Positions 126-37,487 of a DNA stretch of 41,901 bases are shown here, piece by piece. The position numbers were made by a program, and so were the translations under genes. Within the stretch, counting starts at the first letter, position 1; each line of letters opens with the position of its first letter. The notes below the pieces were generated by a model. The model ran no database searches. It was not told where the DNA came from and saw nothing but the letters and a program-made list of their open reading frames with translations. Source of the DNA: a virus; the UHGV virus genome UHGV-0849750; one strand, given 5' to 3'.

Positions 126-344
126 CGCCAAGGGCAGACGGAGCGAGTGACCATCTACCACCTCATAGCGGACGGCACGATCGACCAGCGAGTGCTGAGC
201 GTCCTCGCCCGCAAGTCCACAATACAAGACGCCCTTATGGACGAACTCAAGGCGGACAGCCCGAGCAAGAGCAAGCGCCAGCCAAAGCCAATAGCTAACA
301 GCCAACGGCTAACAGCCAGTCTCCGCACCCCACCGCCATTTTGA
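3..344 (+). CDS. 3' part (C-terminal helicase-C domain and Q/P/ANSQ-rich tail) of the SNF2-family helicase gene that starts at 40642; full gene spans the circular junction
   Basis: Frame 3 reads LLGHPASIGHGLNLQRGGHTIIWYTPTWSLELYEQFNARLARQGQTERVTIYHLIADGTIDQRVL..., continuous with the end of ORF 40642.. Stop TGA at 342-344. Confidence 0.75.
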   Translation, partial: LLGHPASIGHGLNLQRGGHTIIWYTPTWSLELYEQFNARLARQGQTERVTIYHLIADGTIDQRVLSVLARKSTIQDALMDELKADSPSKSKRQPKPIANSQRLTASLRTPPPF

Positions 345-381
345 TACCGCAAAAATTAATCTCAAATTAGTGGGCAAAAAA

Positions 382-413
382 TTTGGTAGTATCAAAAACT
401 TTTCGTACCTTTG
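382..413 (+). promoter_or_regulatory. Bacteroidetes-type promoter (-33 TTTG, 20 nt spacer, -7 TACCTTTG)
   Basis: TTTG at 382-385 and TACCTTTG at 406-413. The same GTACCTTTG core recurs at 27984 and 31518. Confidence 0.5.
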
Positions 414-487
414 TGATAGCAAAGGGGGAGAGATACCCACCTGAGCAACTCAAACAAAGAATACTAACCAAACAAACAGATACTACT

Positions 488-931
488 ATGACTACCGAAA
501 AGACTTACCCAACAACTGACTACTACTACGTAAGGTACAGCCAAGCAAACGGAGACGGCACGATCGTCGCTGTAACTGATGATTACGAAAAGGAGCTAAT
601 GAAGCTAGCGAGCAGAATCTCAGAATGCTCAACATCAATCCACGTGGATCTAGTGGAGAACCTATCAGACGTTAGAGACATCGTCGAGGACATCCTCTCC
701 TACTACTGGTCCGAAGAGGACATCGATCGCATTATGTCCGAGTTTGACGAGGAGGACGACAACGACCCATCAATACTGCTAAACTATGTCGAGTGCATAC
801 TCGAGAATACCTCATGCGAGTGGATGGAGCACTTGTGTTGGAAAGTTTACGACAGCACAGACATCGTACTCGAGTTCGACACGATCGAGGAACTCTACGA
901 ACACTGGCTAGACACTAAGATGCCAGCATAA
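488..931 (+). CDS. Highly acidic hypothetical protein (147 aa; D/E-rich) in immediate-early position
   Basis: ORF 383..931. The promoter -7 element lies inside the annotated ORF, so the internal ATG at 488 (MTTEKTYP...) is the likely start. Composition is strongly acidic. Confidence 0.45.
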   Translation: MTTEKTYPTTDYYYVRYSQANGDGTIVAVTDDYEKELMKLASRISECSTSIHVDLVENLSDVRDIVEDILSYYWSEEDIDRIMSEFDEEDDNDPSILLNYVECILENTSCEWMEHLCWKVYDSTDIVLEFDTIEELYEHWLDTKMPA

Positions 932-1003
932 GGCAACCAAGCAAGGCGGGGCGACTAGCCCCGCCACAACCAACAATACTAACCAACAAAAGGAACTAAG
1001 ACA

Positions 1004-1354
1004 ATGGCACTAGACAAGCAAAACAACAACATCGCATACCTCGCAGGGCGATTAGTAGCAGTATTGAGAGCGGCAGAACTCGCCAATAATGGCGAAAAGG
1101 CTCGGCTCACAACCGAAGAAAAGGTCGACGAGGTGCAGGAGGCTCCGAACACGATCATCGGGAGCTTCCTCGGACTCCGTCAAATCATGGACGGAGTTAC
1201 AGAAAAGCTAGACGAGATCATCAGCGAGATCATGGACAAGGTACCAGCAGACGGCTTTCCCAAGAGTCGCTTTTCAGCTGACGACTGGACGATGTTCTGG
1301 ATTGGCTACCAGCATCAGCGTGGAGCGTTAACCAAGCAAGCAGAGACGAGATGA
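1004..1354 (+). CDS. Hypothetical protein (116 aa)
   Basis: ORF with A-rich leader. Overlaps the next gene by 4 nt (ATGA). Confidence 0.45.
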   Translation: MALDKQNNNIAYLAGRLVAVLRAAELANNGEKARLTTEEKVDEVQEAPNTIIGSFLGLRQIMDGVTEKLDEIISEIMDKVPADGFPKSRFSADDWTMFWIGYQHQRGALTKQAETR

Positions 1355-1554: not shown

Positions 1555-1578
1555 GACGACCACCACAACCACCACGAG

Positions 1579-2221: not shown

Positions 2222-3406
2222 GTGCAGACCATACAGACCACCGAGATATACACCCGCCTAGACACAGCGGTACGAGAGGGGTACACAGCTATCTCCCTCC
2301 AAGGGTCGGCACGTAGTGGCAAGACTTACAACGTGATGATATGGCTCATCCTCTACGCTCTACGAGTGCCAAGTATCAAGATAAGCGTGGTACGTGCCAC
2401 CCTCCCAGCCCTCAAGGGGTCGGTGCTGGAGGACTTCGAGTCCATTATGCGCCAGCTGGGAGTGTACAACGAGAGGCATTTCAACAAGACCGACCTCGTC
2501 TATTGGTTTCGCACACGTAGCACCATCGAGTTCTTCTCCGCATCGGACGAGCAGAGACTGAGAGGTCGTAAGCGAGACATCCTCTTCGTCAACGAAGCTA
2601 ACGAGCTAACCGCAATCCAATTTCAGCAACTCAAGATGCGTACGACACGGCTCACGATCGTAGACTACAACCCGTCATTCAGCGAGGAGCATTGGATCGC
2701 CAAAGACCTCAACAAAGACCCACGCACATACCACTTCGTCAGCACCTACAAGGACAATCCCTTTCTGGAGCAAACCGTCATTGACGAGATCGAGAGCTTA
2801 CAGCATAAGAATTTCAGCCTTTGGCAGATCTTCGGCGAGGGCAAGATGGCACAGATCGAGGGCTTAGTCTTCACCAACGTCAGCACCATCGATGCCTTTC
2901 CCGACCACATCAAGCGCACAGTCCTCGGCATTGACTTCGGCTTCACGCATGACCCGACAGCCATTGTCGAGGTCGCCTACGACAAGGAGGCACTCTACAT
3001 CAGCGAGGTCTGCTATCGCACAGAGATGCTCCAGTCAGACATCATCAAGGTGCTGAAAGGCTACCCCCGCACCAAGGTTGTCAGCGAGAGTGCCGACCCA
3101 CGACTCATTGAGGAGATATACAGAGCGGGTATCAACATCCACCCCGTCCGCAAGTACGCAGGCAGTATCGAGGCGGGTATAGCGTGGATGCTTCAGCACC
3201 CCCTACGAGTTACCGCACACAGCACCAACGTCCTCAAGGAGCTGCACAACTACGTCTACTCGCAGGACAAGGAGGGCAAGCTCCTCAACACACCGATAGA
3301 TGCCTACAACCACGCTATCGACGCCACCCGCTACGTCTGCATGACGGAGTGGATGGGGGGCGAAAAGAAGCCGATTAACCTCAGAAAACTAGCGCAAATA
3401 GTATGA
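2222..3406 (+). CDS. Terminase large subunit (394 aa; GTG start)
   Basis: Walker A-like GSARSGKTYNV. Size and position (after TerS, before portal) fit TerL with a C-terminal RNaseH-like nuclease region. Confidence 0.75.
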   Translation: MQTIQTTEIYTRLDTAVREGYTAISLQGSARSGKTYNVMIWLILYALRVPSIKISVVRATLPALKGSVLEDFESIMRQLGVYNERHFNKTDLVYWFRTRSTIEFFSASDEQRLRGRKRDILFVNEANELTAIQFQQLKMRTTRLTIVDYNPSFSEEHWIAKDLNKDPRTYHFVSTYKDNPFLEQTVIDEIESLQHKNFSLWQIFGEGKMAQIEGLVFTNVSTIDAFPDHIKRTVLGIDFGFTHDPTAIVEVAYDKEALYISEVCYRTEMLQSDIIKVLKGYPRTKVVSESADPRLIEEIYRAGINIHPVRKYAGSIEAGIAWMLQHPLRVTAHSTNVLKELHNYVYSQDKEGKLLNTPIDAYNHAIDATRYVCMTEWMGGEKKPINLRKLAQIV

Positions 3407-3783
3407 GTCAGCCACAAAGGCTCGCCAAGTACAGCGAGCGACAGCAAGCCACCAGCCAGCAGGCTATCGAGCGTGCCACGGACATAATCCAGCGTGCCAC
3501 GGGCAAGCCACGGAGCTACTACACGACACGCTCCCGCAAGGTCGAGTTTGTCGCCTATCGTGCGCTCTTCGCCTACATAGCAGTGGAGCTGGGAGCCAGC
3601 TACACGGCTGTCGGCAAAGCCCTCGGCAGGTCGCACGCCACAGTTATCCACGCTTACGAGAGCTACACCCTCTACGCCACAACGTGGGAGCCACTAGCCA
3701 CCCTCCGCAACAAAGTCATCAACCTATCCAACCCAAAACGCAATGGAAAACATCGCAGAAATACTACAGCTCGCACCTGCTGA
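3403..3783 (+). CDS. DnaA domain-IV-like HTH DNA-binding protein (126 aa)
   Basis: SRKVEFVAYRALFAYIAVELGASYTAVGKALGRSHATVIHAY aligns with the DnaA C-terminal HTH [41 protein letters not shown]. Overlaps the terL stop and the portal start. Confidence 0.45.
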   Translation: MSQPQRLAKYSERQQATSQQAIERATDIIQRATGKPRSYYTTRSRKVEFVAYRALFAYIAVELGASYTAVGKALGRSHATVIHAYESYTLYATTWEPLATLRNKVINLSNPKRNGKHRRNTTARTC

Positions 3784-5116: not shown

Positions 5117-5156
5117 CAAGCTAGAGATTAGAAGATAGATTTTAGAAGATAGAACT

Positions 5157-5582
5157 ATGCCTAGAGGAATACGCAATAATAACCCACTCAACATTCGGAG
5201 GAGTACCGACAAGTGGCTCGGACTTAGCCCCACACAGCGAGACCCTGCCTTTTTCCAATTCGTCGACCTTGTCTACGGCTATCGAGCCGCAGGCAAGCTC
5301 CTCCAAAACTACCAACGGCTCCACAAGCTCTACAACCTTAACGGACTAATAGCCCGCTGGGCACCCGCCAAGGAGAACAACACCAAAGCGTACGTGGCAC
5401 GAGTAGCCCGTGAGCTATCCACGTACGCAGGCAAGATGATAGACGGAGAGACGTACCTAGACCTCATCCACGACAAGGAGCTACTCCGCAAGACCATCAT
5501 CGCAATGCACATCGTGGAGAACGGACTGCGCCCCACAGCCAGCCAGCTAGAGGCACTAGACAAAGGGCTATCGATGCTATGA
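5157..5582 (+). CDS. Hypothetical protein with conserved N-terminal RGIRNNNPLNIR motif (141 aa)
   Basis: ORF with ACTATG start context. Function not recognisable from sequence. Confidence 0.4.
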   Translation: MPRGIRNNNPLNIRRSTDKWLGLSPTQRDPAFFQFVDLVYGYRAAGKLLQNYQRLHKLYNLNGLIARWAPAKENNTKAYVARVARELSTYAGKMIDGETYLDLIHDKELLRKTIIAMHIVENGLRPTASQLEALDKGLSML

Positions 5583-5736
5583 CCCAGTACACAGAGGAGA
5601 CACAAGACGAGCGTCAAGCACGCTACGATAAAGCGGTAAGCATCTACGAGTACAACCGCCAGTGGATGTCGCACAACGACAGCGTGAGCGCATCAATGTA
5701 CCGCACAGCCGTGCCGAGAGACATCATCAAGCGTGA

Positions 5737-6141
5737 GTGCATAAGAGCCGGAGTATGGGACAACTAGCACGCCAGATCGCAAGCGTAGCACTGCTGGCAA
5801 CACTAGCCAGTTGCGCCCCCCGCTACATCCCCGTCAACCACTACATCGAGACGGAGCGGGTCAAGGTGGAGCGGGACAGCGTCCACTACACCGACACCGT
5901 CCGCATCGCAGAGCGGGGCGACACGGTACTCGTGGAGGTGGTCAAGTGGCGGACACGCTACAAGACCGCCACGGACACGCTCGTCAAGGTAGACACGATC
6001 AAACTACCGCCCCAGCTCCTCGCCCAGCCAGCCCCCGAGCGACAGCCGTGGTGGCGCAGGTGGCTCACAGCCATCGGTGCCATCGTCCTCGTAGGAGCTG
6101 GAGCAATAGCCATCTACAAGCTAATAAGAGTACTACGATAG
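5737..6141 (+). CDS. Lipoprotein with C-terminal transmembrane helix (u-spanin-like architecture), 134 aa
   Basis: Signal peptide with lipobox LASC (…IASVALLATLASC). C-terminal hydrophobic segment WLTAIGAIVLVGAGAIAIYKLI. Confidence 0.4.
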   Translation: MHKSRSMGQLARQIASVALLATLASCAPRYIPVNHYIETERVKVERDSVHYTDTVRIAERGDTVLVEVVKWRTRYKTATDTLVKVDTIKLPPQLLAQPAPERQPWWRRWLTAIGAIVLVGAGAIAIYKLIRVLR

Positions 6142-6151: not shown

Positions 6152-7879
6152 ATGACCCCCAAACAGTACGACCGCCAGCACATCAAGCACCTATCCGCCA
6201 TGGATAGGCGCATCGACCAGCTCTTTGACGAGGCACTCAAGAGGCTGGCGAGCTACGGCATCTTCCTCGACAAGCCCCTCGGAGACCAGCCGTTCAGTTT
6301 CGCCGACTACCCCGATGTACAGCAGGTTATTGACGGCATCTTTGAGGAGTTCCGCCAGTCGGTCGAGGTCGTTATCACCAAGGGGCTAGCGTGGGAGGAC
6401 AACCTCTCAGCCAGCAAGGCGACCGACATCGCCTCACGCTATGGCGTAGCAGTCGCACAGCAGAGGAGCCAAGCGGTCGCAGGCTTCGCACAGCGCAAGG
6501 TCGGGGGGCTAGATTTGTCCCAGCGGGTATGGAATATCACAGACACCTTTCACAAGGAGGTCGAGACCGCTATGGACATCGCTCTCCGTGACGGCACACC
6601 AGCTAACCGCCTAGCGACCGACCTCAAGCAGTACCTCAAGTACCCCGACAAGCTATTCAGACGAGTACGGGACGAACACGGACAGCTCCAGCTATCCAAG
6701 CGTGCCAAGGAGTTTCACCCAGGGGCGGGAGTGTATCGCTCCAGCTACAAAAACGCACGCAGGCTAGCCGTGACAGAAACGAACATGGCGTACCACAAGG
6801 CGGACAACGAGCGGTGGCGACAGCTAGACTTCGTCCTCGGCTACGAGGTGCAGGTATCGGGTACGAACCCCAACGTCTGCCCCCTTTGCGAGGAGCTAGC
6901 GGGTAAGTACCCCAAGGAGTTCGAGTTCGTAGGCTGGCACCCCCACTGCAGGTGCCATGCCGTGCCGATTATGGAGGACGTAGACAGCTTCCAAGCCCGC
7001 CAAGAGCTAATAGCCAACGGCAAACAGCCCCAAGCCCCCACGGGACAAGTGACCGCACCGCCGAAGAACTTCACCGACCACCTCAAGGACAACAGCGACC
7101 GCATCCAGCGAGCCAGCAAAGCAGGCACGCTCCCCTACTTCGTCCGTGACAACTACAAGGTCGGCAAAGACGGCACCCTCACCCCGACATTCAACGCCCA
7201 ATCTATAGAAGCTCGAAAGCTCGGCACGTACGGCAACAAGCTCGGACGCAAAGCAACAAAAGAGGCGCAGACAGCTCTAGCCGATCACAAGACACTAGAC
7301 AACTTCTCTGAGGCTCAAATGAAGAACTTTGAAGAGATAAACAAGGCTACAGGGTATAAGCGTGGAAAGGTGATGTCTTTTGAGGAAGCAGACAACGGAC
7401 AATCTAACATCTCACGAGACATTGAGAACTGCGCCTCCTGCGTAGTAGTACACGAGATGAGACTTAGAGGGTATGACATATCTGCCTTAAAGTACGACGC
7501 ACGAGACGGAAGCATATCAAAGCTACTATCAGCGGACACTCGTAGCATTTGGATGACCGCTAAGGGGAAAACGCCCGAATTCTCAGCTTTGATAGGCGGA
7601 GAACCAGACGATATTGTGAAAGCTATAGAAAAGCAAACCCAGCCTATCGGTAGTCGCTACAATATAGGCTGGGACATTTCAAAAGAGTTAGGACATGTCG
7701 TTACGGCAGAGAGAACTGCCAACGGATTAGTTATCTACGATCCGCAAAAAAACGCATTCTTATCTCTAGAAGAAGTTGTAAGTGATATGATGAGTGGGTC
7801 AAAGATTCAATTGTTGCGTGTAGATAGGCTACTACTAAGAAGTGATCTTTTGGCGTCCATCTCCTCCACTTTGAAATAG
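6152..7879 (+). CDS. Head morphogenesis protein of the Mu-F/SPP1-gp7 family with low-GC C-terminal Cys-His-Asp domain (MuF-type polymorphic toxin candidate), 575 aa
   Basis: MuF zinc-ribbon signature NPNVCPLCEELAGKYPKEFEFVGWHPHCRCHAVPI. The C-terminal ~190 aa (from nt ~7300) are AT-richer and contain NCASCVVVHEM...ELGHVV...IYDPQ. Confidence 0.65.
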   Translation: MTPKQYDRQHIKHLSAMDRRIDQLFDEALKRLASYGIFLDKPLGDQPFSFADYPDVQQVIDGIFEEFRQSVEVVITKGLAWEDNLSASKATDIASRYGVAVAQQRSQAVAGFAQRKVGGLDLSQRVWNITDTFHKEVETAMDIALRDGTPANRLATDLKQYLKYPDKLFRRVRDEHGQLQLSKRAKEFHPGAGVYRSSYKNARRLAVTETNMAYHKADNERWRQLDFVLGYEVQVSGTNPNVCPLCEELAGKYPKEFEFVGWHPHCRCHAVPIMEDVDSFQARQELIANGKQPQAPTGQVTAPPKNFTDHLKDNSDRIQRASKAGTLPYFVRDNYKVGKDGTLTPTFNAQSIEARKLGTYGNKLGRKATKEAQTALADHKTLDNFSEAQMKNFEEINKATGYKRGKVMSFEEADNGQSNISRDIENCASCVVVHEMRLRGYDISALKYDARDGSISKLLSADTRSIWMTAKGKTPEFSALIGGEPDDIVKAIEKQTQPIGSRYNIGWDISKELGHVVTAERTANGLVIYDPQKNAFLSLEEVVSDMMSGSKIQLLRVDRLLLRSDLLASISSTLK

Positions 7880-8867: not shown

Positions 8868-10240
8868 CACAACAACCACAATACAAGGACATCAACCTCG
8901 CACAGCTCGAGGAGAACAGAGGGCAGATAGACGGGCTACCTGCCAACCCCCGCAACATACAGCCCGACAAGCTAGCCAAGCTCAAGCGGAGCATTCTCGA
9001 CAACCCCGAGATGCTCCAGCTACGAGGCATCCTTGTCTATCCGCACGGGGACAAGTACATCGTCATCGGTGGCAACATGCGCCTCCGAGCCATGGTCGAG
9101 CTGGGTATGACCTCCGCCCCCTGCATCGTTATCCCGAGCCACGTCACAGCCGACAAGCTCCGAGCCTACACGATCCTCGACAACAGCGCTATGGGTGAGT
9201 GGGACTGGCAAGCCCTCCAGCTCGAGTGGGACACCGCACAGCTTGACGACTGGGGCATTGACCTGCCCGACTTCACGGACGAGCAGGACGAGGACGCTAT
9301 CGCCAGCGAGGACGACTACGAGATGCCCGAGGAAATCGAGGAGGTCGAGACCGACATCCAGCAGGGCGACCTCATCATCTTAGAGGGGCGAGGGCTGACG
9401 CACCGCCTTATGTGTGGCGACAGCACGAGGAGCGACCACTTCGCCACGCTTATGGGAGGAGCCACTGCCGACCTCATCGTCACCGACCCACCATATAACG
9501 TGGACTATGGAGATGCGAGGGAAAGGGTCGCCAAGCTCCAAGGCGGTGAGAAGTCAAAGCACAAAGCAATCGCCAACGACAAAATGAGCGACAGCGACTT
9601 CATTGGCTTCCTCGCAAAAGTATTCAGCAACATGGAAGGCGCACTCAAAGCAGGCGGGGCTTTCTACGTATGGCTATCAGACAGCAAGCTCAACAGCAAT
9701 ATACAAGCTCTAGAACATGCGGGGCTGGGCTACCAGCAGATACTATTTTGGGTGAAGAACAACCACGTGCTGGGCTTTATGGACTACCACCAAAAGCACG
9801 AGCCGTGCCTCTACGGCTGGAAAGCGGGAGCGACGCACTATTTCATTGGCGAGCGAGACCACTCCACAGTCCTCGAGCGTGCCAAGAGCTTACTCAGTGG
9901 CAAGGCGACACAGACCGAGCTACGAGCCTGCATCAAGGAGCTGACCACAGCACTCAGTGAGGGGACAGACGTACTGCGCTACGACAAGCCACTAGCCAGC
10001 AAGCTCCACCCGACGATGAAGCCGATACCGCTCTTCGGTGAGCTAATCCGCAATTCGTCAAGACGGGGGGAGAGCGTACTCGACCCCTTTGCGGGGAGCG
10101 GGACAACCATCGTAGCGTGCCACGATATGGGGCGCAACGCTTACGCTATGGAGTACAGCCCGAGCTACTGCCAAGTGATCATCAACCGCCTCACGGAGCT
10201 TGACCCAGACCTCAAAATGATAAACGAAAGACAACGCTAG
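8864..10240 (+). CDS. ParB-like nuclease domain fused to a beta-class DNA amino-methyltransferase (458 aa)
   Basis: N-terminal ParB/Srx-like LRGILVYPHGDKYIVIGGNMRLRAMVELG. Methyltransferase motif IV IVTDPPYN followed, after ~190 aa, by motif I LDPFAGSGTT (beta-class order). Confidence 0.7.
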   Translation: MTQQPQYKDINLAQLEENRGQIDGLPANPRNIQPDKLAKLKRSILDNPEMLQLRGILVYPHGDKYIVIGGNMRLRAMVELGMTSAPCIVIPSHVTADKLRAYTILDNSAMGEWDWQALQLEWDTAQLDDWGIDLPDFTDEQDEDAIASEDDYEMPEEIEEVETDIQQGDLIILEGRGLTHRLMCGDSTRSDHFATLMGGATADLIVTDPPYNVDYGDARERVAKLQGGEKSKHKAIANDKMSDSDFIGFLAKVFSNMEGALKAGGAFYVWLSDSKLNSNIQALEHAGLGYQQILFWVKNNHVLGFMDYHQKHEPCLYGWKAGATHYFIGERDHSTVLERAKSLLSGKATQTELRACIKELTTALSEGTDVLRYDKPLASKLHPTMKPIPLFGELIRNSSRRGESVLDPFAGSGTTIVACHDMGRNAYAMEYSPSYCQVIINRLTELDPDLKMINERQR

Positions 10241-10338: not shown

Positions 10339-10914
10339 ATGACACAGACAACACAGACCACACAGCAGGCAGGCGAGGCGACTCAAGAGACGACCAGCCA
10401 GCCCGCAGAGACCACACAGCAGGCGACGGCACCACAGCCCGAGCAGACGGCACAGCAGACCACACCACCGCAAGCCCCGAAGTCGGCATTCATCAGCGAC
10501 GGCAAGCTACCACAGAGCAAGCCACAGCCAACGGCTAACAGCCAACAGCCAAAGGCTAACGAACAGCCAACAGCCAACAGCCAAGAGCTAATAGCAAAAG
10601 TAACCGCCCTGCAGGCACGGCTAGACGCTATTGAGAGCCAGCGCACCACAGAGACACGCACAGCCGAGGTCGAGCGCATCATAGCTCCCCTCAGCGACAC
10701 ACTCAAGGCGGTCTACAGACGCACCCCCTTTGCCTCGCTCACGGACGAGGAGTACACACAGCTCACAGAGACGATCAAAGAGGAGGTCACCGAGTTAGCT
10801 ACAGCGGACAAGGTACGGGGCGCAGTCTTCAGCCGACCCACCGCCATCAAGCCGACCGACGGCAAGGCAAGCGACAAAGAGACCGCAGAAGTTATCAGAC
10901 GACTCAATCTATAA
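10339..10914 (+). CDS. Putative scaffolding protein (T/Q-rich N-terminus with PTANSQQ repeats, helical C-terminus), 191 aa
   Basis: Low-complexity, acidic, helical protein immediately upstream of the capsid genes. Confidence 0.4.
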   Translation: MTQTTQTTQQAGEATQETTSQPAETTQQATAPQPEQTAQQTTPPQAPKSAFISDGKLPQSKPQPTANSQQPKANEQPTANSQELIAKVTALQARLDAIESQRTTETRTAEVERIIAPLSDTLKAVYRRTPFASLTDEEYTQLTETIKEEVTELATADKVRGAVFSRPTAIKPTDGKASDKETAEVIRRLNL

Positions 10915-14379: not shown

Positions 14380-14507
14380 CCAGCTAACAGCCAATAGCCA
14401 ACAGCTAACGGCTAACCCCACAGCCCCACCCCACACGACTAGTCAATCGAAGCAAATACGGGGCTTCCAGCACTAGCCACGGGGCGGGAGCTAACACAAG
14501 AGCGAGA

Positions 14508-14577
14508 GGTTAGACGATAGGGAGCGGGGTTTTTCTTTTGCTTGTTTCTTTTCCCCCGCTCGCCTATCGCTCTAACC
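14508..14577 (+). terminator. Long imperfect hairpin (~22-bp arms GGTTAGACGATAGGGAGCGGGG / CCCCGCTCGCCTATCGCTCTAACC) with a T-rich loop; attenuator/terminator after the major tail gene
   Basis: Inverted repeat read directly. Loop is TTTTTCTTTTGCTTGTTTCTTTTC. Confidence 0.45.
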
Positions 14578-14604
14578 CATTAACCACTAACACCACACAC
14601 CACT

Positions 14605-23101: not shown

Positions 23102-23137
23102 AGATTAGAACATTAACAATAAAAAACCCAATACACT

Positions 23138-24451: not shown

Positions 24452-24632
24452 CCCGCCACGTGTAACCCTCTGTAGGGACGCTCGGACGTGTCTAGTGGGA
24501 GGGCGTCCGTCCCCGTCAAAGCAAGACGACAACCCGTAGGGACGCTCGATCTGAGCGTCCGTTGTAGTACCAGCGAGACGACCCCCGAGCGTCCCTACAT
24601 TTCCCCCTCTAACCTCTAATATCTAAAACCCT

Positions 24633-26429: not shown

Positions 26430-26797
26430 CGCACAGCCCCCACCAGCTATCCTTATCCGCAATTTCACTACCTTTGCGGACAGAGCGAGCGACCCCGCCA
26501 GCACCCAAATTTCTACACATTTGATGCTACGTTGTTGCTCGCAAGGATGTTATATATGCGTTACTTCGTAATTACTAGCACGTTACACAACCACAACTAT
26601 CTTCGCCATACGAATATATGGGGTAATCACGCCTATGCAAAGATACGACAAACGAACGACATAAGCAGACAAAGGAAAGCAAGTAATAGAGCAGTATCGA
26701 GACAAGAGCAAGACAATCGGAATTTATCTCCAGTTGCCTTGCTTTTGTCGTATTATTGTTGTTACTTTGTTGCTCACATCAATCCGAGCAACAAGAA

Positions 26798-27889: not shown

Positions 27890-27959
27890 CTATTCGGAAA
27901 TTCCGAAGAGTTGCGGGAGCAACTATCCAGCAACATCGGTTAGCTCGAACTTACCAAAG

Positions 27960-27991
27960 CTTGGTAATTTCAAAAAGTATTTGTACCTTTG
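27960..27991 (+). promoter_or_regulatory. Bacteroidetes-type promoter (TACCTTTG -7 element) for the higB-higA operon
   Basis: TACCTTTG at 27984-27991 with TTGG/TTTG upstream. Confidence 0.45.
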
Positions 27992-28014
27992 CAGTGTAAG
28001 AAAAGAAGAGGTTA

Positions 28015-31608: not shown

Positions 31609-31896
31609 ATGACACAAGAAGAGCTAAGAGCAAAATTAGAGAGCTACGACCTCAAGGGGGCAACGCTGAAGCAACTACTAGCAGACAGAGACATCGCCAA
31701 GGAGGCGCAGGCACAGCTACAACGCTCCTACAGGGAGCTACGCAACTACAACATAGCAGGCTGGGCTGGCACCACCACGGACGAGGTGAGAGACAGAATG
31801 AATGAGTGCCTCCAAGCAATCGCAGACGAGGCAGCTATGTACGGAGCTTTCGTCGGCAGAGCGAGCGAGGAGATCTACAAGCGACTAGACAAGTAA
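31609..31896 (+). CDS. Early hypothetical protein (95 aa)
   Basis: First ORF after the early promoter. Confidence 0.4.
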   Translation: MTQEELRAKLESYDLKGATLKQLLADRDIAKEAQAQLQRSYRELRNYNIAGWAGTTTDEVRDRMNECLQAIADEAAMYGAFVGRASEEIYKRLDK

Positions 31897-31914
31897 CCAC
31901 AAGCGGACAAGACT

Positions 31915-32217
31915 ATGTTTCTTCACGAGATCGAGGCGAGCCTCAAGGAGCGCAAGCTGGAGGAGTACAGCCTATCAAGGCTCATCGGGTGCAAAGAGTA
32001 TGCACGTATCGTCATAACCAACCTAGAGAGGTCGGCAGAAGAGATTAAGGACTACGTCATCGCAAAGACTCCACTCGAGGACATCGCAAGCACAGAATTA
32101 AAGAACCTCAAGAATGAGCTGGCATCACGTATTGATGCGGAGGTGCAGGTCTACGAAGACTTCTACCTGCGAGCAGAAAAAGAGATTGACAAGCGACTAG
32201 AGACAACCGACAAATAG
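31915..32217 (+). CDS. Early hypothetical protein (100 aa)
   Basis: ORF with GACTATG start. Confidence 0.4.
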   Translation: MFLHEIEASLKERKLEEYSLSRLIGCKEYARIVITNLERSAEEIKDYVIAKTPLEDIASTELKNLKNELASRIDAEVQVYEDFYLRAEKEIDKRLETTDK

Positions 32218-32392
32218 TAGTCAGCGTAGAGCAGAGACACCATCCAACAGTAGCTATGTACAACCTTTGCCTCTGACACTACGCACGAGAGACGCCACGG
32301 GGGCGTCCGTGAGGACTAGGGGCGATGCAAGCGCCCACCCCGTGCGTCGCTACTACCAACACAACGACCAAACCAAAATAACCAACAAGACT

Positions 32393-32590
32393 ATGTACAT
32401 CGAGAACAAATCAGACATATACGCCATAATCAAGACAATCCGAACGCTAAAGACAAGGCGAGCAGTGAAGAGCTACTACAAGCAACTTCCAAGCGACGCA
32501 CAGCTAAACTTTGACGTGATATTTGTGGCACATCAGCAGATGAGGGACATACGGAGAGCGAGAATCTACAGATGGCTACTCAACCTCTAG
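32393..32590 (+). CDS. Small basic protein (65 aa), paralog of 32839..33174
   Basis: Shared C-terminal motif F.AH.Q.R.IRR.RIYRW. Duplicated upstream sequence ACAACGACCAAACCAAAATAAC…ACTATG. Confidence 0.4.
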   Translation: MYIENKSDIYAIIKTIRTLKTRRAVKSYYKQLPSDAQLNFDVIFVAHQQMRDIRRARIYRWLLNL

Positions 32591-32614
32591 ACACCAACCA
32601 ACGACACAGACACG

Positions 32615-32833
32615 ATGACACCCACAGAGGCGATAGCAGAGATACGCAAGCTGAGGACAGACGACGAGGTTAACGAGTACAGCAGGAACCTACCCAAGGA
32701 GCTACGATACAGCTACGAGGTGCAGAGCCAGCTCAGACTGAGAGCGATGCAGATATTCCACGAGACCGTAGACACAGCGGACACACGACCAGCATACGCC
32801 TACCCGTGGGCATACAACGACCAAACCAAATAA
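32615..32833 (+). CDS. Early hypothetical protein (72 aa)
   Basis: ORF between the two paralogs. Confidence 0.35.
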   Translation: MTPTEAIAEIRKLRTDDEVNEYSRNLPKELRYSYEVQSQLRLRAMQIFHETVDTADTRPAYAYPWAYNDQTK

Positions 32834-32838
32834 CAACT

Positions 32839-33174
32839 ATGAAATACTTCAAGGAGAGCGAGTGGAGAGACGAGGTCGAGTACCTCGATAGGGAGAAGCA
32901 CGTCCCCGAGCCATTGAAAGAGCTGAATAACAGCCTCAACATCACACGAGCCACAACACGGGGAGCCGTCCTCTACTTCTACTTCAGTTTGCCCGAGGAG
33001 TTCCAGAGAGAGCGCAACAACATATTCTCAGCACACAGACAGCTGAGAGCTATACGCAAGGAGCGCAGGAGGCAGACGATAATCAATTGGCGCAGAGCCA
33101 TCAAGGCAAAGATATACCGCTGGCAACTCAAGCAGGAGTACAAGCGGATAACCAAGCACGATCAAAACAAATAA
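32839..33174 (+). CDS. Small basic protein (111 aa), paralog of 32393..32590
   Basis: FSAHRQLRAIRKERR…IYRW. Same upstream 25-nt sequence as its paralog. Confidence 0.4.
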   Translation: MKYFKESEWRDEVEYLDREKHVPEPLKELNNSLNITRATTRGAVLYFYFSLPEEFQRERNNIFSAHRQLRAIRKERRRQTIINWRRAIKAKIYRWQLKQEYKRITKHDQNK

Positions 33175-33186
33175 AACAATAGACCA

Positions 33187-33417
33187 ATGAGCAAGACCAA
33201 AGAGACAATCATTATCCCAAAGAGAGACTTTGAGAAGTACAAGAGATGGACAGAGATGCTCCAGATGTACGAGGGGATGCGCAAGGAGCAACCCGAGAGG
33301 AGTAAAAACTCCATCCACACCTACATCGGGGCGCAGTTTGACGTATCGATCGCATCGGTGATAAATGCGATCAGCCGATGCACGGAGACCACAGCAGTAA
33401 AACTAACAAGAGAGTAA
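33187..33417 (+). CDS. Early hypothetical protein (76 aa)
   Basis: ORF in the early cluster. Confidence 0.35.
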   Translation: MSKTKETIIIPKRDFEKYKRWTEMLQMYEGMRKEQPERSKNSIHTYIGAQFDVSIASVINAISRCTETTAVKLTRE

Positions 33418-33421
33418 CGAT

Positions 33422-33724
33422 ATGGCTACAATGGACGACATCAAGCGTCAGCTCGATCGCATCGAGCAGTACGCTGTCATATCTAGCAAGGAGGTGCTAG
33501 ACCTAGAAGAGGCGATCACATACACGGGGTGCGCACGATCCACCCTCTACCGCCTCACCTCCGCAAAGGAGATACCCCATTACAAGCTGGGGCAGGCACT
33601 CCGCTTTAAAAAATCCGAGCTGGACGAGTGGCTCACCAGAACGAGGGTAGCAACCGCCAAGGAGATCGAGAGCAAAGCAGTGACCTATATGACGCTCAAG
33701 GACAAGGGATATACACGCAAGTAG
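33422..33724 (+). CDS. AlpA/excisionase-like HTH DNA-binding protein (100 aa)
   Basis: LDLEEAITYTGCARSTLYRLTSAKEIPHYKLGQALRFKKSELDEWL matches the AlpA/Xis (HTH_17) pattern. Confidence 0.5.
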   Translation: MATMDDIKRQLDRIEQYAVISSKEVLDLEEAITYTGCARSTLYRLTSAKEIPHYKLGQALRFKKSELDEWLTRTRVATAKEIESKAVTYMTLKDKGYTRK

Positions 33725-33883
33725 GACAAAACAATGACAATAAGAGAGATCAGAGCAGAGATCAAGAAGCTGGAGCGTGAGATGCGCAAGCTCCGAAACG
33801 AGACAGAGGATATACACGGACAAATCCGAGACCTGCCGTGGAGCGAGGAAGAGGATAATCAGCAATAAGACAGAGACAAGACT

Positions 33884-34174
33884 ATGGCACCGCAAGGACT
33901 AAGCGAACTGATGGAGCTAGCGACTGAAGTAGACGAGCTCCGAGAGAAAGCTAGTGGGCTGATGGTGCGCCTCATAGACCTCTACCAAGTCGAGGAGGAT
34001 GTAGAAGATCTAGGAGCGCACGACAGCCTAACCAAAGCGACAGTATCTCTGCAAAAGGCAGCATGGCGACTAGGGCATGCTGTGACAGAGATACGGGAAG
34101 GACACAAGTTTGAAAAGGCTCTAATGGACTACTACGAAGAACTATCAAGCAGGCTACACAATGACGATAGATGA
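33884..34174 (+). CDS. Early hypothetical protein (96 aa)
   Basis: ORF with GACTATG start. Confidence 0.35.
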   Translation: MAPQGLSELMELATEVDELREKASGLMVRLIDLYQVEEDVEDLGAHDSLTKATVSLQKAAWRLGHAVTEIREGHKFEKALMDYYEELSSRLHNDDR

Positions 34175-34403
34175 GATAACAACAGCCCTCCAAGAGTGGA
34201 GAGGTGACGACAATGCAAGACACTACACGCTCATCGCAGTAGATGACGATGAAGAAATCACAGTGGCGGTGCTGGGTAGCGGCTTTTTCCTCGGGTACGC
34301 ACTAGCATCAGCGATGAGGAAAAAGCCGTCAACAAAGAGCATCGTGCAGTGGGCTATGGCGCTCAAGGAGATGGACATATTTAACGACAATGACGAAGAA
34401 TAG
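34161..34403 (+). CDS. Early hypothetical protein (80 aa)
   Basis: Translationally coupled ORF. Confidence 0.35.
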   Translation: MTIDEITTALQEWRGDDNARHYTLIAVDDDEEITVAVLGSGFFLGYALASAMRKKPSTKSIVQWAMALKEMDIFNDNDEE

Positions 34404-34638
34404 ACTGAAGATGGTTGAAGCGTGGCTCCGAGGGCTGGGGCTGGCGCTACTCGCAGGGGCTGGGTTCGTCCTCCTCCTGCACGACTTAGACGCAGACACC
34501 CCGACAATGTCGTGGGGCTGGAGCTTACTCGCCCGCATCGCAGGCGCAGGGCTACTCTACATCACCTACAAGGTCGGCAAGGCACTCCACAAGTGGGGAC
34601 TGCTCCCGACGATAACAACGGACGACATAGACGACTGA
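34390..34638 (+). CDS. Small membrane protein with two predicted TM helices (82 aa)
   Basis: Hydrophobic segments LGLALLAGAGFVLLL and LLARIAGAGLLYITY. Confidence 0.35.
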   Translation: MTKNRLKMVEAWLRGLGLALLAGAGFVLLLHDLDADTPTMSWGWSLLARIAGAGLLYITYKVGKALHKWGLLPTITTDDIDD

Positions 34639-34641
34639 GCA

Positions 34642-34965
34642 ATGATGACGAAAGAATCAAATCGTAGCCAAGAGAGCTACATACAGCGAGTGCTGGACAT
34701 AGCACGTCAGATGCCGAAAGTTGGGTCTCCCAACATACGTAGGCAGTACTATGCCCTCAAAGACATCTGCTACGGACTACGGTCGGCTACTAAGGGGCTA
34801 CAAGCCCTGCAAGAGCTATACGGTAAAAATGACCTGAGTAGCCATTTCTTAGACCTCGCCGAGGCATTAGAGGACTACTACAGCATAGCTCGTACGGTAT
34901 CTATCGAATCGCTAGAAGAGATGGGCAGGATAATCGAGATAGAGATGCGCAAAATGAAGGAGTAA
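34642..34965 (+). CDS. Early hypothetical protein (107 aa)
   Basis: ORF preceding the repeat-rich region. Confidence 0.35.
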   Translation: MMTKESNRSQESYIQRVLDIARQMPKVGSPNIRRQYYALKDICYGLRSATKGLQALQELYGKNDLSSHFLDLAEALEDYYSIARTVSIESLEEMGRIIEIEMRKMKE

Positions 34966-35177
34966 TGATTGGCAACCCTAAGGCTCCCACCCCGCAACCC
35001 TAAAGCTAACGGTCGGCAAGCCTAAGCCTCCCGAGCGGGACACATAGGTCTCCCGAGCGCAAGGCATATGTACCCGATACGGCTCAATCGTACCCACGTC
35101 ACCACAGACGTGTACCCGATACCGCCAATTCGTACCCACATCACTAGACAATATCAACCAATAACACAATAAAGAAA

Positions 35178-35810
35178 ATGGAAGCAATAAGCATCAAGCA
35201 AGGAGCGCACAGCGCACTACTACTCCACCTCGCTCAGATACAGAGCGAGCTGAAAGCCCCCAAGGGACAGCGTAACACCTTCGGGAAGTATAACTATCGC
35301 AGTTGCGAGGATATACTCGAGGCTGTCAAGCCTCTACTCACCGTGCGGGGACTAGTCCTCCTCATCACGGACGACATTGTCCAGATAGGCGAGCGATACT
35401 ACGTCCGTGCTACAGCCACCATCTACGACAGCGAGGGGAGCTACATCAGCAACTCAGCACTAGCCCGTGAGGAGGCAGTGAAGAAAGGTATGGACGCTTC
35501 GCAGATAACGGGAGCGACCAGCTCATACGCCCGCAAGTACGCCCTCAACGGACTCTTCGCCATCGACGATACCAAGGACGCTGACGCTACCAACAAGGGG
35601 CAGGACGAGCCAAAGCCCGCAAAGGCAACCGCACAGCCAGCCTTTACGGACGAGATCAAAGGCGCACTAGCCAAGGCGCAGACGGTGCAGGAGCTAGTGG
35701 AGACCTTCGGCAGGCTCCCGCAGGCACTACGAAACAGCGCAGATGTCAAGAGCTACTGCGCTCACCTCAAGGGCAAACTAGAGACCCCACAACCAGCGAC
35801 ACAAAAATAG
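35178..35810 (+). CDS. ERF-family single-strand annealing protein (210 aa)
   Basis: Conserved ERF segments NTFGKYNYRSCEDILEAVKPLL and SYARKYALNGLF. Confidence 0.65.
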   Translation: MEAISIKQGAHSALLLHLAQIQSELKAPKGQRNTFGKYNYRSCEDILEAVKPLLTVRGLVLLITDDIVQIGERYYVRATATIYDSEGSYISNSALAREEAVKKGMDASQITGATSSYARKYALNGLFAIDDTKDADATNKGQDEPKPAKATAQPAFTDEIKGALAKAQTVQELVETFGRLPQALRNSADVKSYCAHLKGKLETPQPATQK

Positions 35811-35886
35811 ACACCTATCTATCAATCAATAGACAGCTGTCTATCACTCAAAAGACAGCTGTCTAATTTCAAGCAAGCAAAAGACA

Positions 35887-36804
35887 ATGAAAGCAACCGA
35901 TTTAACAACCTCGCCGATCATCTTTGATCCCGAGGCACACGAGTACCTACTCGTCGGGGAGGACTTCACCTACACCGCCTACAGCGGGGTCACCTCCATA
36001 CTCAGCCAAGTACTATTCCCCAGCAAGTACAAGGACGTGGACGAGGACGTGCTGGCGAGAGCAGCCGCACGAGGCACTCGCATTCACGAGCTATGCCAAG
36101 CGACCGACACGATACACACGGACAGACGGGAGGGCGACGAGCAATACGCACCCGAGGTCGCCAACTACGAGCTAATCAAGGTGAGCAACGACATCACGAT
36201 GGTCGCCAACGAGTACCTCGTGAGCCGTGACGACTGGGGCATAGCTAGTCAGATAGACTGCGTGGACAGCGAGGGCAACCTCTACGACATCAAGACCACC
36301 TACCGACTAGACACGGAGTACGTCTCCTGGCAACTGAGCTTCTACGCTGAAATGTTCGAGCGACAAAATCCCGACCTCAAGGCGGGCAAGCTATACGCCA
36401 TCTGGCTACGAGGTGCCGAGAGCAAGCTCGTAGAGGTACCACGCAAGACACCCGAGCAAATCGAGCAGGTCATCAAGGCATGGCAGGCGGGCGAGACGCT
36501 CACATCAGCTGACGGAGACGACATAGACCGCCTCGTAGCTATCGAGGAGCAGATAGCCATCCTCAAGGACTCGCTCAGCGAGCTAGAGAGCAAGCGACTC
36601 CAAGCACTCGAGCCGATACAAGCTAAGATGGTCGAGGACGGAGTTAAGAGCGTGGACAACCCACGCATCAAGATAACCCTCGTAGCGGACAGCACCTCCA
36701 CACGCTTCGACAGCAAGCGGTTCAAGGCTGACCACAGCGACCTCTTCAAGGAGTACAGCACGGAGACAACCCGTGCAGGCTACATCAAGACAACACTAAT
36801 CTAA
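35887..36804 (+). CDS. PD-(D/E)xK recombination exonuclease (Cas4/RecB-like fold), 305 aa
   Basis: D…D/E…K arrangement (…IDCVDSEGNLYDIKTT…) and position next to ERF and SSB. Confidence 0.45.
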   Translation: MKATDLTTSPIIFDPEAHEYLLVGEDFTYTAYSGVTSILSQVLFPSKYKDVDEDVLARAAARGTRIHELCQATDTIHTDRREGDEQYAPEVANYELIKVSNDITMVANEYLVSRDDWGIASQIDCVDSEGNLYDIKTTYRLDTEYVSWQLSFYAEMFERQNPDLKAGKLYAIWLRGAESKLVEVPRKTPEQIEQVIKAWQAGETLTSADGDDIDRLVAIEEQIAILKDSLSELESKRLQALEPIQAKMVEDGVKSVDNPRIKITLVADSTSTRFDSKRFKADHSDLFKEYSTETTRAGYIKTTLI

Positions 36805-36824
36805 TTTTCAAACGCAATACAATT

Positions 36825-37487
36825 ATGACTATCCAACCAAAGAGCAAGGAAGCAGTAGCATGGACGGGCGAGTGTCCGATCACCTACGTAGACTTTGACA
36901 CACCACGAGAGCCACGATTCGAGGGGCAGAAGCCCCAATACCAGTGCATCGTCCTCATCGACAAAGGGGACAAGGCGACACTCAAGGCTATCGGTGACGC
37001 TATCCAAGTAGCCAAGGAGAAGCTCACGGACACCGATCCAGCCGACCCATTCGCTCCATTCCTCAAGGACGGAGACGAGCGCACGGATAAAAATGGTGAC
37101 CCCGTGGAGTCCTTCCAAGGCAAGTGGTACTTCACCGCAAAGAACACCGAGAGACCTAACGTCTACAAGCTTACCGACACGGGAGCCGAGCCTGCAGAGA
37201 CGGGCGAGGTGACCAACTGGGACGCAGGGCAGGTGGTCGTATACCTTAACGCTTACGACTACCAAGGACACAAGGGGGTCTCGGCTCGGCTCCTCGGATT
37301 TTGTAAGACTGGCTCAGTCCGTGAGCCACGGGAGACGATGCCAGTCGATGCAATGTTCGGACACCTCGGTGCCACAGCTACAGCCCCAGCCAATAGCCAA
37401 CAGCCAACGGCTAACAGCCAACAACCCCTGCAGACGGGCTTCGACCCCAACGCACAAGCAAGTAGCAACGACGACTTCCCCTTCTAG
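36825..37487 (+). CDS. Single-stranded DNA-binding protein with C-terminal acidic tip DDFPF (220 aa)
   Basis: C-terminal …SSNDDFPF resembles the SSB protein-interaction tail (DDDIPF). Preceded by ANSQQPTANSQQP linker. Sits in the recombination/replication module. Confidence 0.55.
   Translation: MTIQPKSKEAVAWTGECPITYVDFDTPREPRFEGQKPQYQCIVLIDKGDKATLKAIGDAIQVAKEKLTDTDPADPFAPFLKDGDERTDKNGDPVESFQGKWYFTAKNTERPNVYKLTDTGAEPAETGEVTNWDAGQVVVYLNAYDYQGHKGVSARLLGFCKTGSVREPRETMPVDAMFGHLGATATAPANSQQPTANSQQPLQTGFDPNAQASSNDDFPF

Follow-up and report, generated by a model that had tools for sequence, protein, structure and literature searches.

Among the heptanucleotide repeats of bacteria, the cyanobacterial STRR family (CCCCAGT, TTGGTCA and CAACAGT) was reportedly described by Mazel et al. 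in 1990. The STRR are intergenic chromosomal repeats of heterocystous cyanobacteria, and we know of no described link between them and phage coding regions. The contingency loci of Haemophilus and Neisseria also consist of short tandem units, located in or beside genes, whose length is not a multiple of three. A different kind of low-complexity sequence is found in the SSB of bacteria and phages, which carries a disordered linker, free in both length and sequence, before its acidic/hydrophobic C-terminal tip. More generally, heptamer SSRs are over-represented in bacteria, polymorphic among close relatives and often located just before start codons (PMC4692102; PMC4679880). They include the Calothrix heptamers cited in PMC4692102, the TAACTGA direct repeats of Beggiatoaceae, Cyanobacteria and some Bacteroidetes (MacGregor 2015, PMC4679880), and the G-rich SSRs GGGAATC of Xanthomonas and GGGGAYT of Nostoc (Rehm et al. 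2015, PMC4692102).

Here we describe a repeat of this known kind, a heptanucleotide microsatellite resembling the STRR and TAACTGA repeats, with the unit RGCYAAM and in a phage. The window, that is, the whole stretch of 41,901 nucleotides analysed, is the circular genome of a temperate siphophage of Porphyromonas. The unit is mostly AGCCAAC or AGCTAAC and forms tandem arrays of 4 to 11 units, of which seven sites are found in this 41.7 kb genome, every one on the plus strand:

285-319, plus strand: array of five heptamers in the SNF2 helicase, within its C-terminal tail, encoding KPIANSQRLTAS (aa 459-470 of 477).
6997-7024, plus strand: array of four heptamers in a MuF/SPP1-gp7-like minor head protein (aa 282-291).
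10525-10598, plus strand: the longest array, in the scaffold-position gene (10339-10914), with about ten units and a single irregularity of 4 nt, encoding QPTANSQQPKANEQPTANSQELIA (aa 63-86).
14381-14415, plus strand: intergenic array of five units that begins where the major-tail-position gene (13933-14379) ends in TAG.
14956-14990, plus strand: array of five units that covers the TAG stop of the gene at 14605-14958 and a 30-nt spacer, and reaches the ATG of the chaperone-G-position gene at 14989.
37387-37421, plus strand: array of five units in the disordered linker of an Enc34/gp2.5-type SSB, encoding PANSQQPTANSQQ (aa 188-200).

An earlier, sequence-only reading of this DNA had reported five of these loci, and all are present where it placed them. 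Tandem Repeats Finder returns 7-nt tandem arrays (period 7 or 14) at 286-318, 10520-10591, 14381-14416, 14957-14989 and 37387-37423, with 2.4 to 10.4 copies per array. A sixth gene with an array had been overlooked (6997-7024, four units, ORF 6152-7879). A more tolerant array finder gives 285-319, 14381-14415, 14956-14990 and 37387-37421 with five units each and 10525-10559 plus 10564-10598 with 5+5, so that arrays have 4-5 units and the scaffold gene a total of about ten; it detects no minus-strand array of RGCYAAM in the window. Two units at 29301 were left out of the site count. The excess over chance, which had also been claimed, is borne out by the two-unit pattern GCYAACRGCYAA, which has 14 matches, on the plus strand only, against 0.05 expected (mean of 100 dinucleotide-preserving shuffles). 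What had been taken for a related fragment near 34990 is one unit within another repeat cluster, at chance level.

The SNF2 helicase gene spans the ends of the circle (40642-41855, then 125-344), and the MuF-like minor head protein carries a fused Gln_amidase toxin domain at its C-terminus (426-533), the array lying near the end of the MuF part, before the toxin domain. In the SSB, the DNA-binding domain (aa 14-158) precedes the array and the DDFPF tip follows it. The 14381-14415 array is followed by a structured segment, which is conserved, and by a long hairpin (14508-14577) made from another heptamer family. The earlier labels of SNF2 helicase and SSB hold, the latter being of the Enc34/gp2.5 type, while scaffold, major tail and chaperone G are positional names only, PHROGs giving nothing but families of unknown function for these three genes.

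The TAACTGA repeats are alike in several respects: in both cases a 7-nt unit forms short tandem sets at many dispersed sites, its abundance is patchy and genome-specific, the sets frequently lie directly before start codons and now and then within ORFs, close to their ends, and close strains differ chiefly by indels. The differences lie in the unit, in its carriage by a phage, in the window copies being mostly in genes as in-frame linkers, and in several window changes being patch replacements rather than 7-nt steps. With the STRR, which are intergenic and chromosomal whereas the window has coding copies in a phage, RGCYAAM shares the dispersed, lineage-specific tandem heptamers; STRR3 (CAACAGT) is even one base from CAACAGC, a rotation of the RGCYAAM unit, although this may be a coincidence. 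The GGGAATC and GGGGAYT SSRs are likewise over-represented intergenic heptamers that vary strongly in length and sequence between close relatives and occur occasionally as inverted pairs, as RGCYAAM does in related phages and in the host; those units can form G-quadruplexes, whereas RGCYAAM, with one or two G per repeat, cannot. As in heptanucleotide SSRs at large, the arrays have at least three tandem units, are dispersed over many sites and are polymorphic between relatives, but their location is not mainly intergenic: five of the seven window sites (in four genes) are coding and two are non-coding. This may be because only about 7% of the phage DNA is non-coding.

We favor, with a probability of roughly 55%, the reading that RGCYAAM is a heptanucleotide microsatellite that was amplified in one Porphyromonas siphophage lineage by slippage or template switching, and that was kept in linkers, tails and spacers. 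The arrays exist, exceed chance, are gained and lost among relatives, keep the frame where coding length changes, are placed in linkers and tails, and also exist in the host and other phages. As for the mechanism, new copies would come from replication slippage or from short template-switch (gene-conversion-like) events, seeded at A/C-rich words such as ACAGCC and GCCAAG, which abound in this genome poor in T, and they would spread as short insertions or as 30-40-nt patch replacements. Within genes, they would last only at sites that tolerate any length provided the frame is preserved, namely disordered linkers and C-terminal tails; between genes, they would last in spacers that separate a stop codon from the following start or hairpin. 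The array copies themselves are probably near-neutral. Some points fit this reading less well: several events are patch replacements, which classical slippage does not predict, rather than simple 7-nt gains; the unit is enriched in the phage over the host; and, as described below, slippage is not fast and arrays of the unit can be functional in other phages.

The sequence-only reading had stressed that the repeat is always in the same reading register. This is true but uninformative, as each array has units in all three codon phases: since 7 and 3 have no common factor, any frame of (GCCAACA)n gives the peptide ANSQQPT. On the sense strand, the C-variant unit is thus stop-free and encodes hydrophilic P-T-A-N-S-Q-Q whatever the frame, and T-variant units can provide a stop codon. 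Read in antisense, the unit gives a hydrophobic peptide (CWLLAVG) or stops, and about 95% of the genome is coding on one strand, which accounts for the sense-only orientation. All coding copies lie within linkers or tails (SSB, helicase, MuF-like protein; a site in the ERF of a relative lies at a domain end). The SSB copy falls precisely where SSB linkers vary, after the DNA-binding domain and before the C-terminal tip, but this linker sequence derives from a repeat at the DNA level that unrelated genes and non-coding DNA carry as well. One could imagine that selection for P/T/A/N/S/Q-rich linkers acted first and that the DNA periodicity is secondary, each coding copy being hydrophilic and flexible. 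We find this scarcely credible: two window arrays are non-coding, the host copy is intergenic, and the nucleotide-level identity includes synonymous positions and an exact 7-nt period, which peptide selection does not impose. The intergenic copies largely refute such a convergence.

Across about 20 relatives (79-93% DNA identity), the arrays vary as presence/absence polymorphisms. Of the genomes compared, only the window has those at 14381 and 6997. The former is a clean 37-nt insertion with respect to L121, is missing in L122-L124, and has no counterpart at this site in L245-L254 according to the array finder. At the latter, 33 nt of array-like sequence in the window replace 30 nt of unrelated sequence in the four aligned relatives (L121-L124), the array finder again returning nothing at this site in L245-L254; this MuF patch has the 16-mer GCCAAGAGCTAATAGC in common with the scaffold array. 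At 14956, L121 has no array but a stop-start overlap (ATGA), L123, L249 and L250 have three units, and L245 has five different ones. The SSB array is absent from L280-L282: the window linker is exactly 21 nt (three units, seven codons) longer than in the array-less L280 and L282, and the linker encoded by L281 is the short one of L280. In the scaffold gene, relatives carry five-unit or degenerate versions and/or, some 70 bp upstream, a further array that is missing from the window, while the 285-319 array is found again, with one substitution, in the relative contig 085997 (L121/L042). Conversely, the ERF of relative L279 carries an array that the window does not have, in a patch replacement in which the upstream flank is 99% identical and about ten differences are packed into some 30 nt. 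Absence at corresponding positions in related phages, which the sequence-only reading had named as evidence against its proposal, is hence seen at several sites (14381, 6997, 14956 and SSB), and the ERF case runs in the other direction. The repeat does not behave as a conserved signal, and it probably survives only where it is harmless.

These length changes (21 nt, or three units, in SSB; 37 nt after the major-tail gene; a net +3 nt in the MuF and ERF patches) also bear on whether the arrays could act as contingency loci, in which the gain or loss of one unit would shift the frame and switch the C-termini of the helicase, the SSB or a tail protein. The resemblance is real, as the tandem units lie in or beside genes, their length of seven is not a multiple of three, and two arrays stand shortly before functional C-termini (the DDFPF tip of SSB and the helicase tail). 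Nevertheless, we consider this the least probable of all readings, since the coding differences observed are of 21 nt or 3 nt and keep the frame, with no frame-shifting variation in unit number seen between near-identical genomes, and since the arrays are short, impure and interrupted, with at most three identical units in succession. Furthermore, the scaffold arrays are identical in seven contigs with an identical capsid protein (L246-L248, L251-L254), and slippage is therefore not fast; no intermediate or heterogeneous copy numbers were seen.

The same lack of positional conservation makes it less favored that the arrays are iterated DNA- or RNA-binding sites, for instance for the ParB-methyltransferase, the DnaA_C-HTH protein or a host factor. 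Judging from the sequence, such a role might be suggested by a unit iterated on one strand at seven sites, by the ParB_N-N6 methyltransferase and Bac_DnaA_C protein that the phage encodes, and by the presence of a methyltransferase homologue (32% identical) in the array-saturated contig L067. It is very improbable, however, given that close relatives do not share the sites consistently, that the unit variants are heterogeneous, that a 7-bp spacing puts neighboring sites on different faces of the helix, and that the unit is present in many phyla, with no common binding protein found when the window's own proteins were checked against the viral sequences retrieved.

The arrays had also been proposed to mark module boundaries or recombination sites. 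Such a role could operate through short homologies that allow phages to exchange modules by ERF/SSB annealing, and the phage indeed encodes both an ERF (domain aa 17-153) and a gp2.5/Enc34-type SSB, while other mosaic Porphyromonas-type phages have such arrays too. The 285-319 array is 22 bp from a homology break and the 6997-7024 array is 175 bp upstream of the variable toxin domain junction. Yet the former is the only one of the seven sites within 25 bp of a break, and that break is simply where the gene ends; the remaining ones are 175-300 bp from a break or, for the most part, within unbroken homology. Most breaks have no RGCYAAM array within 150 bp (2151, 5582, 7193, 10193-10224 and 15664), and array positions are not conserved in relatives, which makes the proposal improbable. 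The related idea of a mobile linker cassette stands in part: there are short insertions or patches at new sites which, in genes, are always linkers or tails, but they have no discrete ends and the repeat also occurs in the host and in unrelated genomes.

In the host chromosome, about 41 kb of which were compared, we find one site of the RGCYAAM unit, against seven in the phage (one-sided binomial p ~0.035). Equal frequency in the host, which would have pointed to a general oligonucleotide bias, is thus not what we observe. The host site is intergenic and polymorphic, with seven units in some strains and three or four in others, and it is placed between a stop codon and a hairpin, resembling the 14381 array. 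The unit is also found in other Porphyromonas-type phages that share genes with the window, and in their inspected contigs the coding copies are all in sense orientation and mostly close to C-termini.

The arrays might instead function at the RNA level: sense arrays would be selected as structure-poor, A/C-rich mRNA, serving as Shine-Dalgarno-independent translation leaders in Bacteroidota or, after stops, as spacers or for the loading of Rho, the coding copies being by-products. Under the microsatellite reading too, the array at 14956-14990, which terminates at the ATG of the next gene, probably doubles as a translation leader of the kind usual in this phage, A/C-rich and poor in structure; the other leaders of the phage are A/C-rich with the words CTAAC, CCAAC and TAACC. 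The host array and that of 14381 occupy the same position between stop and hairpin; in unrelated phages, a sense array immediately precedes the ribosome-binding site and ATG of almost all genes; and TAACTGA repeats lie a few nucleotides from start codons in Beggiatoaceae and Flexibacter (PMC4679880). Against this stand the predominance of coding sites in the window, the ATGA overlap that takes the place of the 14956 array in L121, and the bacterial arrays. In bacteria, where the unit occurs in many phyla, 109 of 125 arrays from 120 stretches are intergenic, but in both orientations, the downstream gene being on the same strand in 40 cases and on the opposite strand in 56. We therefore regard an RNA-level role as the main origin of the arrays as unlikely, if still plausible, and retain the microsatellite reading.

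Among viruses at large, the unit is not exceptional: in IMG/VR, permuted heptamers are about as common, with exact five-unit arrays in 4 stretches versus 1 and 4 for the permuted controls, and degenerate three-unit arrays in more than 120 stretches versus 78 for the control. Some unrelated phages, however, carry inverted-pair hairpin cassettes of RGCYAAM, absent from the window, which has no minus-strand array. These cassettes, made of an antisense and a sense array around a short loop between genes, occupy nearly all intergenic gaps (IMG/VR 3300021255_003533 and 3300028833_000521), and their regularity indicates that RGCYAAM arrays can be functional elsewhere.

Head-to-tail 7-nt units of the pattern RGCYAAM can be read at each of the five loci where the sequence-only reading had reported a periodic element, with variants such as AGCCAAC, AGCTAAC, GGCTAAC and AGCCAAT, and Tandem Repeats Finder assigns these five a period of 7 or 14. 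The two-unit pattern GCYAACRGCYAA has 14 matches in the window, all on the + strand, against a mean of 0.05 in 100 dinucleotide-preserving shuffles. The following coordinates come from a tolerant unit finder run on both strands of the window, which also recovered an array overlooked before (6997-7024) and found no RGCYAAM array on the minus strand.

Heptamer arrays in the window (tolerant unit finder)
285-319, + strand, heptamer array
6997-7024, + strand, heptamer array
10525-10559 and 10564-10598, + strand, two adjoining heptamer arrays
14381-14415, + strand, heptamer array
14956-14990, + strand, heptamer array
37387-37421, + strand, heptamer array

A "related fragment" had also been pointed out near 34990; it is a single unit within an unrelated repeat cluster and stands at chance level, and so do two units at 29301. 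We discarded the 20-22-mers common to different arrays as a proof of copy-and-paste, since about 1-2 of them are expected by chance (an estimate) with so few unit variants.

The coding copies are all found at places where length is free. In the SSB, the array lies in the linker that joins the DNA-binding domain (aa 14-158) to the DDFPF tip; in the SNF2 helicase it lies within the last 20 residues; in the minor head protein it is near the end of the MuF part, before the variable C-terminal toxin domain; and in the protein at the scaffold position it occupies the N-terminal third. A further copy, at the end of the ERF domain, is carried by a relative, and the window is without it. For one copy, the array at 14956-14990, a functional contribution is plausible: the gene that follows has it as a 30-nt leader, similar to the other A/C-rich leaders of this phage.

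It had been noted that all copies are in the same reading register. This holds as an observation, but it is an arithmetic consequence of a period of 7 read by a code of 3. As 7 and 3 share no factor, every frame of (GCCAACA)n gives the same cyclic heptapeptide, ANSQQPT. The codon phase of successive units runs 0, 1, 2, 0 and so on, and we checked that all three phases are represented by the units within each array. At phase 0, GCY is a synonymous alanine codon, while at phase 1 YAA must be CAA within genes because TAA is a stop. The AATAGCC variant gives TAG in one phase, and both intergenic arrays start with it, at the stop codon of the upstream gene. Read in antisense, the unit gives CWLLAVG or contains TAG, and for this reason the coding copies are mostly sense-oriented: they are all sense in the related phage contigs inspected, and sense outnumbers antisense 15:1 in bacteria and 54:23 in viral stretches (with a crude ORF call).

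We then considered about 20 relatives (the fetched stretches L121-L124, L042/L073, L245-L260 and L279-L282), whose capsids are 94-96% and whose DNA is 79-93% identical to those of the window. The arrays are not conserved and come and go among these genomes; at several sites, relatives are without an array at the corresponding position. After the major tail gene, the array at 14381 is a clean 37-nt insertion with respect to L121; it is absent from L122-L124 and was undetected in L245-L254. At the 14956 junction, L121 has no array and its stop and start overlap as ATGA, and the arrays of other relatives count 3 or 5 units and differ in composition. At 6997, in the MuF-like protein, 33 array-like nucleotides stand in place of 30 unrelated ones, in frame and between identical flanks. 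The scaffold gene has arrays in every genome, but at two alternative sub-sites and with differing lengths. In ERF (about 35611-35638), the window and L255 show a non-periodic A/C-rich linker, and a 4-unit array stands at this place in the relative 085997; this patch in 085997 amounts to about ten differences, a net gain of 3 nt, and adjoins a 99%-identical flank. Finally, with its array the SSB linker of the window exceeds those of L280 and L282 by exactly 21 nt (3 units, 7 residues), and L281 encodes the same short linker. Contigs sharing an identical capsid protein have identical arrays, hence turnover is not rapid on the shortest timescale.

The proposal that the element is a recombination linker or marks module boundaries is not supported by these comparisons. 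Homology to the relatives breaks at about 340, 1639, 2151-2203, 5582-5777, 7193-7197, 8900, 10193-10224 and 15664-15750, and only the break at about 340, which is a gene end, has an array within 25 bp. A distance of 175 bp separates the 6997 array from the junction to the variable toxin domain, and the remaining arrays are within continuous homology. The gene with this domain (6152-7879) encodes a MuF/SPP1-gp7-like minor head protein, to which a papain-fold glutamine deamidase toxin domain (PF15644, aa 426-533) is fused at the C-terminus; the products at this position in relatives range from 392 to 885 aa, with the homology break at 7193-7197, a predicted architecture that fits the pattern of phage-borne polymorphic toxins.

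The genome itself encodes a terminase, SPP1-type portal, HK97-like capsid (PF03864) and tape measure, and also ERF, an Enc34/gp2.5-type SSB, a VapE-like protein and the SNF2 helicase. Bases 1-124 recur at 41732-41855, and the last 46 bases (41856-41901) are a reverse-complement copy of bases 1-47 that brings a false stop at 41865; these inverted terminal bases are an assembly artefact. Given the terminal repeat and the artefactual end, the window represents a circular genome of about 41.7 kb; the opening falls within the SNF2 helicase gene, which spans the junction. No near-identical phage was found in INPHARED, only distant capsid homologues, and no exact match to the capsid protein of the window is on record. 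Rfam at gathering thresholds gave no RNA family in the window, and ARAGORN no tRNA or tmRNA.

The integrase is a Bacteroidota-type tyrosine integrase (Arm-DNA-bind_5 and SAM_5). Its exact sequence is also found on a contig, adjoining a TypA gene whose protein is identical to that of an "uncultured Porphyromonas sp." and falls in the same 90% cluster as P. asaccharolytica. As the TypA of this contig is that of Porphyromonas and the chromosomal site beside it also exists uninterrupted, the host is Porphyromonas. The prophage site lies downstream of typA, between a xerD-like recombinase gene and aroQ (DHquinase_II); with occupied and empty sites both available (window 26430-26797 and 27890-28014; L256 3755-3944; L266 13583-13653), attP and attB could be defined.

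In about 41 kb of non-redundant host chromosome near the integration site, reached through TypA and M16 peptidase cluster members, there is one RGCYAAM array. It is intergenic, with a stop codon on one side and a hairpin on the other; four strains carry 7 units of it, others 3-4. The unit thus occurs in the host, but not with the equal frequency that a general bias would give, as the density in the phage is about seven times higher (one-sided binomial p about 0.035, on a small sample). In the same host DNA, another heptamer family (TTAGAGG/CCTCTAA) forms a single inverted pair in the gap that separates a TPR gene from ribH. RGCYAAM arrays are also present in six IMG/VR contigs with scattered genes in common with the window (150005, 166624, 172547, 124001, 165924 and 140406); there, the coding copies are sense and mostly near C-termini, and the intergenic ones occur in both orientations, some as adjacent inverted pairs folding to hairpins.

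In a collection of bacterial genomes, a 4-unit pattern matched at least 120 stretches. Among those listed, arrays have 3-39 units, 47 of the 120 are Bacteroidota (counted from titles), the others include Gemmatimonadota, Acidobacteriota, Chloroflexota, Planctomycetota and Desulfobacterota, and several genomes are matched two or three times. This spread looked striking, but the idea of a globally special unit was dropped, as permuted units gave similar counts in IMG/VR: exact 5-unit arrays were found in 4 stretches for the target and in 1 and 4 for the controls, and degenerate 3-unit arrays in at least 120 and 78, respectively. We treat the wide distribution as general abundance of heptamer simple sequence repeats (SSR) plus genome-specific amplification, and it is the amplification in particular genomes, this phage lineage included, that is notable. 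Heptamer repeats are the over-represented class of long SSR in bacteria and differ between close relatives (PMC4692102; PMC4679880), and a TAACTGA family is located just upstream of start codons (PMC4679880). A literature search with the repeat strings returned no paper containing them (two irrelevant matches), and one for heptamer repeats in Bacteroidetes or Porphyromonas prophages nothing specific beyond PMC4679880.

On the preferred reading, the element belongs to a known class, the bacterial heptanucleotide microsatellites, and is unusual in colonising the coding linkers of a phage. The suggestion of a mobile linker cassette is right only loosely, in that a linker sequence is spreading. 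The events read from the alignments are short clean insertions, indels of exactly three units and replacements of 30-40-nt patches, at sites where a unit-like word, for example GCCAAG or GCCAAA, is already present. Replication slippage, together with short template switching or ectopic conversion between copies, would generate such events, and selection would then remove stops, frameshifts and insertions into structured domains. The seeds may be supplied by the genome's own word usage. ACAGCCA is the second commonest heptamer, with 33 copies (about 19 outside arrays, an estimate) for a composition-based expectation of about 6. The + strand is very poor in T (16% overall, 9% at the third codon positions of structural and replication genes), against 22% in the genes of the host and 17-20% in the lysogeny module of the phage itself. 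This avoidance of T on the coding strand is extreme in the genes at 2222-26429 and 31609-41855; the AT skew is about 0.3.

The unit reaches far higher densities elsewhere. Two unrelated phage contigs, 3300021255_003533 (L108, L112, L021) and 3300028833_000521 (L062), are saturated with RGCYAAM arrays, up to 18 per 10 kb, with a cassette in nearly every intergenic gap. Its order is stop codon, antisense (YGTTAGC)n, a GCGCGC...GCGCGC mini-hairpin, sense (GCTAAMA)n, GGAGG and ATG; paired with each other, the two arrays give hairpins of -40 to -100 kcal/mol, and the cassette looks like a regular intergenic RNA element. These contigs suggest another reading, which we hold to be improbable: the YTAAC/CCAAC-core arrays would be an actively generated, modular gene-junction block of Bacteroidota, their phages and some other phyla, written by a dedicated process at stop/start junctions and in linkers. 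Sense copies would then serve as translation leaders free of structure or as linkers in proteins, and inverted pairs would give RNA hairpins between genes; the window would be a snapshot of an ongoing invasion of a phage genome. Candidates for the writing process might be the phage annealing system, through patch synthesis primed by microhomology, or some enzyme.

If the microsatellite reading is right, the window brings neither a new signal nor a mobile element, but a clear example of how a heptanucleotide microsatellite colonises the genome of a phage. A repeat coprime with three and stop-free on one strand would then be tolerable as a disordered linker in essential genes such as those of SSB, helicase, scaffold and ERF; the repeat could also furnish gene junctions with stops and spacers; and such repeats would turn over fast between phages about 90% identical. 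For annotators, recurring "PTANSQQ" linkers and a "conserved reading register" may be by-products of a DNA repeat. The saturated contigs would be better material than the window for the general function of bacterial heptamer repeats.

Several other features were noted. Some gene junctions of the window (5121-5156, 15663-15684, 23090-23117, 24606-24626 and 14585-14600) carry other heptamer families, with a TAA(C) core: TTAGARG/TAGAAGA arrays follow stops or precede ATGs, CCTCTAA is present three times directly before the ATG at 24633, and TAACCAC precedes the ATG at 14605. In the host gap between the TPR gene and ribH (L276 2405-2520 and L283 9056-9128), a TTAGAGG array faces an inverted CCTCTAA array across a loop. 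Downstream of the major tail gene, after which a consensus scan found no canonical intrinsic terminator, about 75 nt of non-coding sequence (14425-14500) are 79-89% conserved in otherwise unrelated phage contigs (L058, L102, L084, L012) and fold into three nested helices (CCCCGCC/GGCGGGG, CTAGT/ACTAG and GAAGC/GCTTC) with a few compensatory changes; a 22-bp hairpin follows (14508-14577), its arms being degenerate TTAGAGG/CCTCTAA heptamers around a T-rich loop. A small RNA, or a signal for processing or termination, could be encoded here.

Upstream of ERF, the repeat cluster at 34970-35145 contains three CAACCCTAAGGCTCCC-like units and two 34-nt direct repeats (TGTACCCGATAC...GTACCCAC), 42 nt apart, and is possibly an origin of replication or a region with a regulatory role. 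In the gap that follows ERF (35804-35886), before the next gene, 22-nt direct repeats with the palindrome AGACAGCTGTCT are probably a binding site of operator or origin type; this sequence is 90-94% conserved in the unrelated contigs L091 and L036. Finally, the gene at 3403-3783, between the large terminase and portal genes, codes for a small protein that carries the C-terminal helix-turn-helix domain of DnaA (PF08299); this position is unusual for a DnaA_C-type protein and is kept in all relatives.
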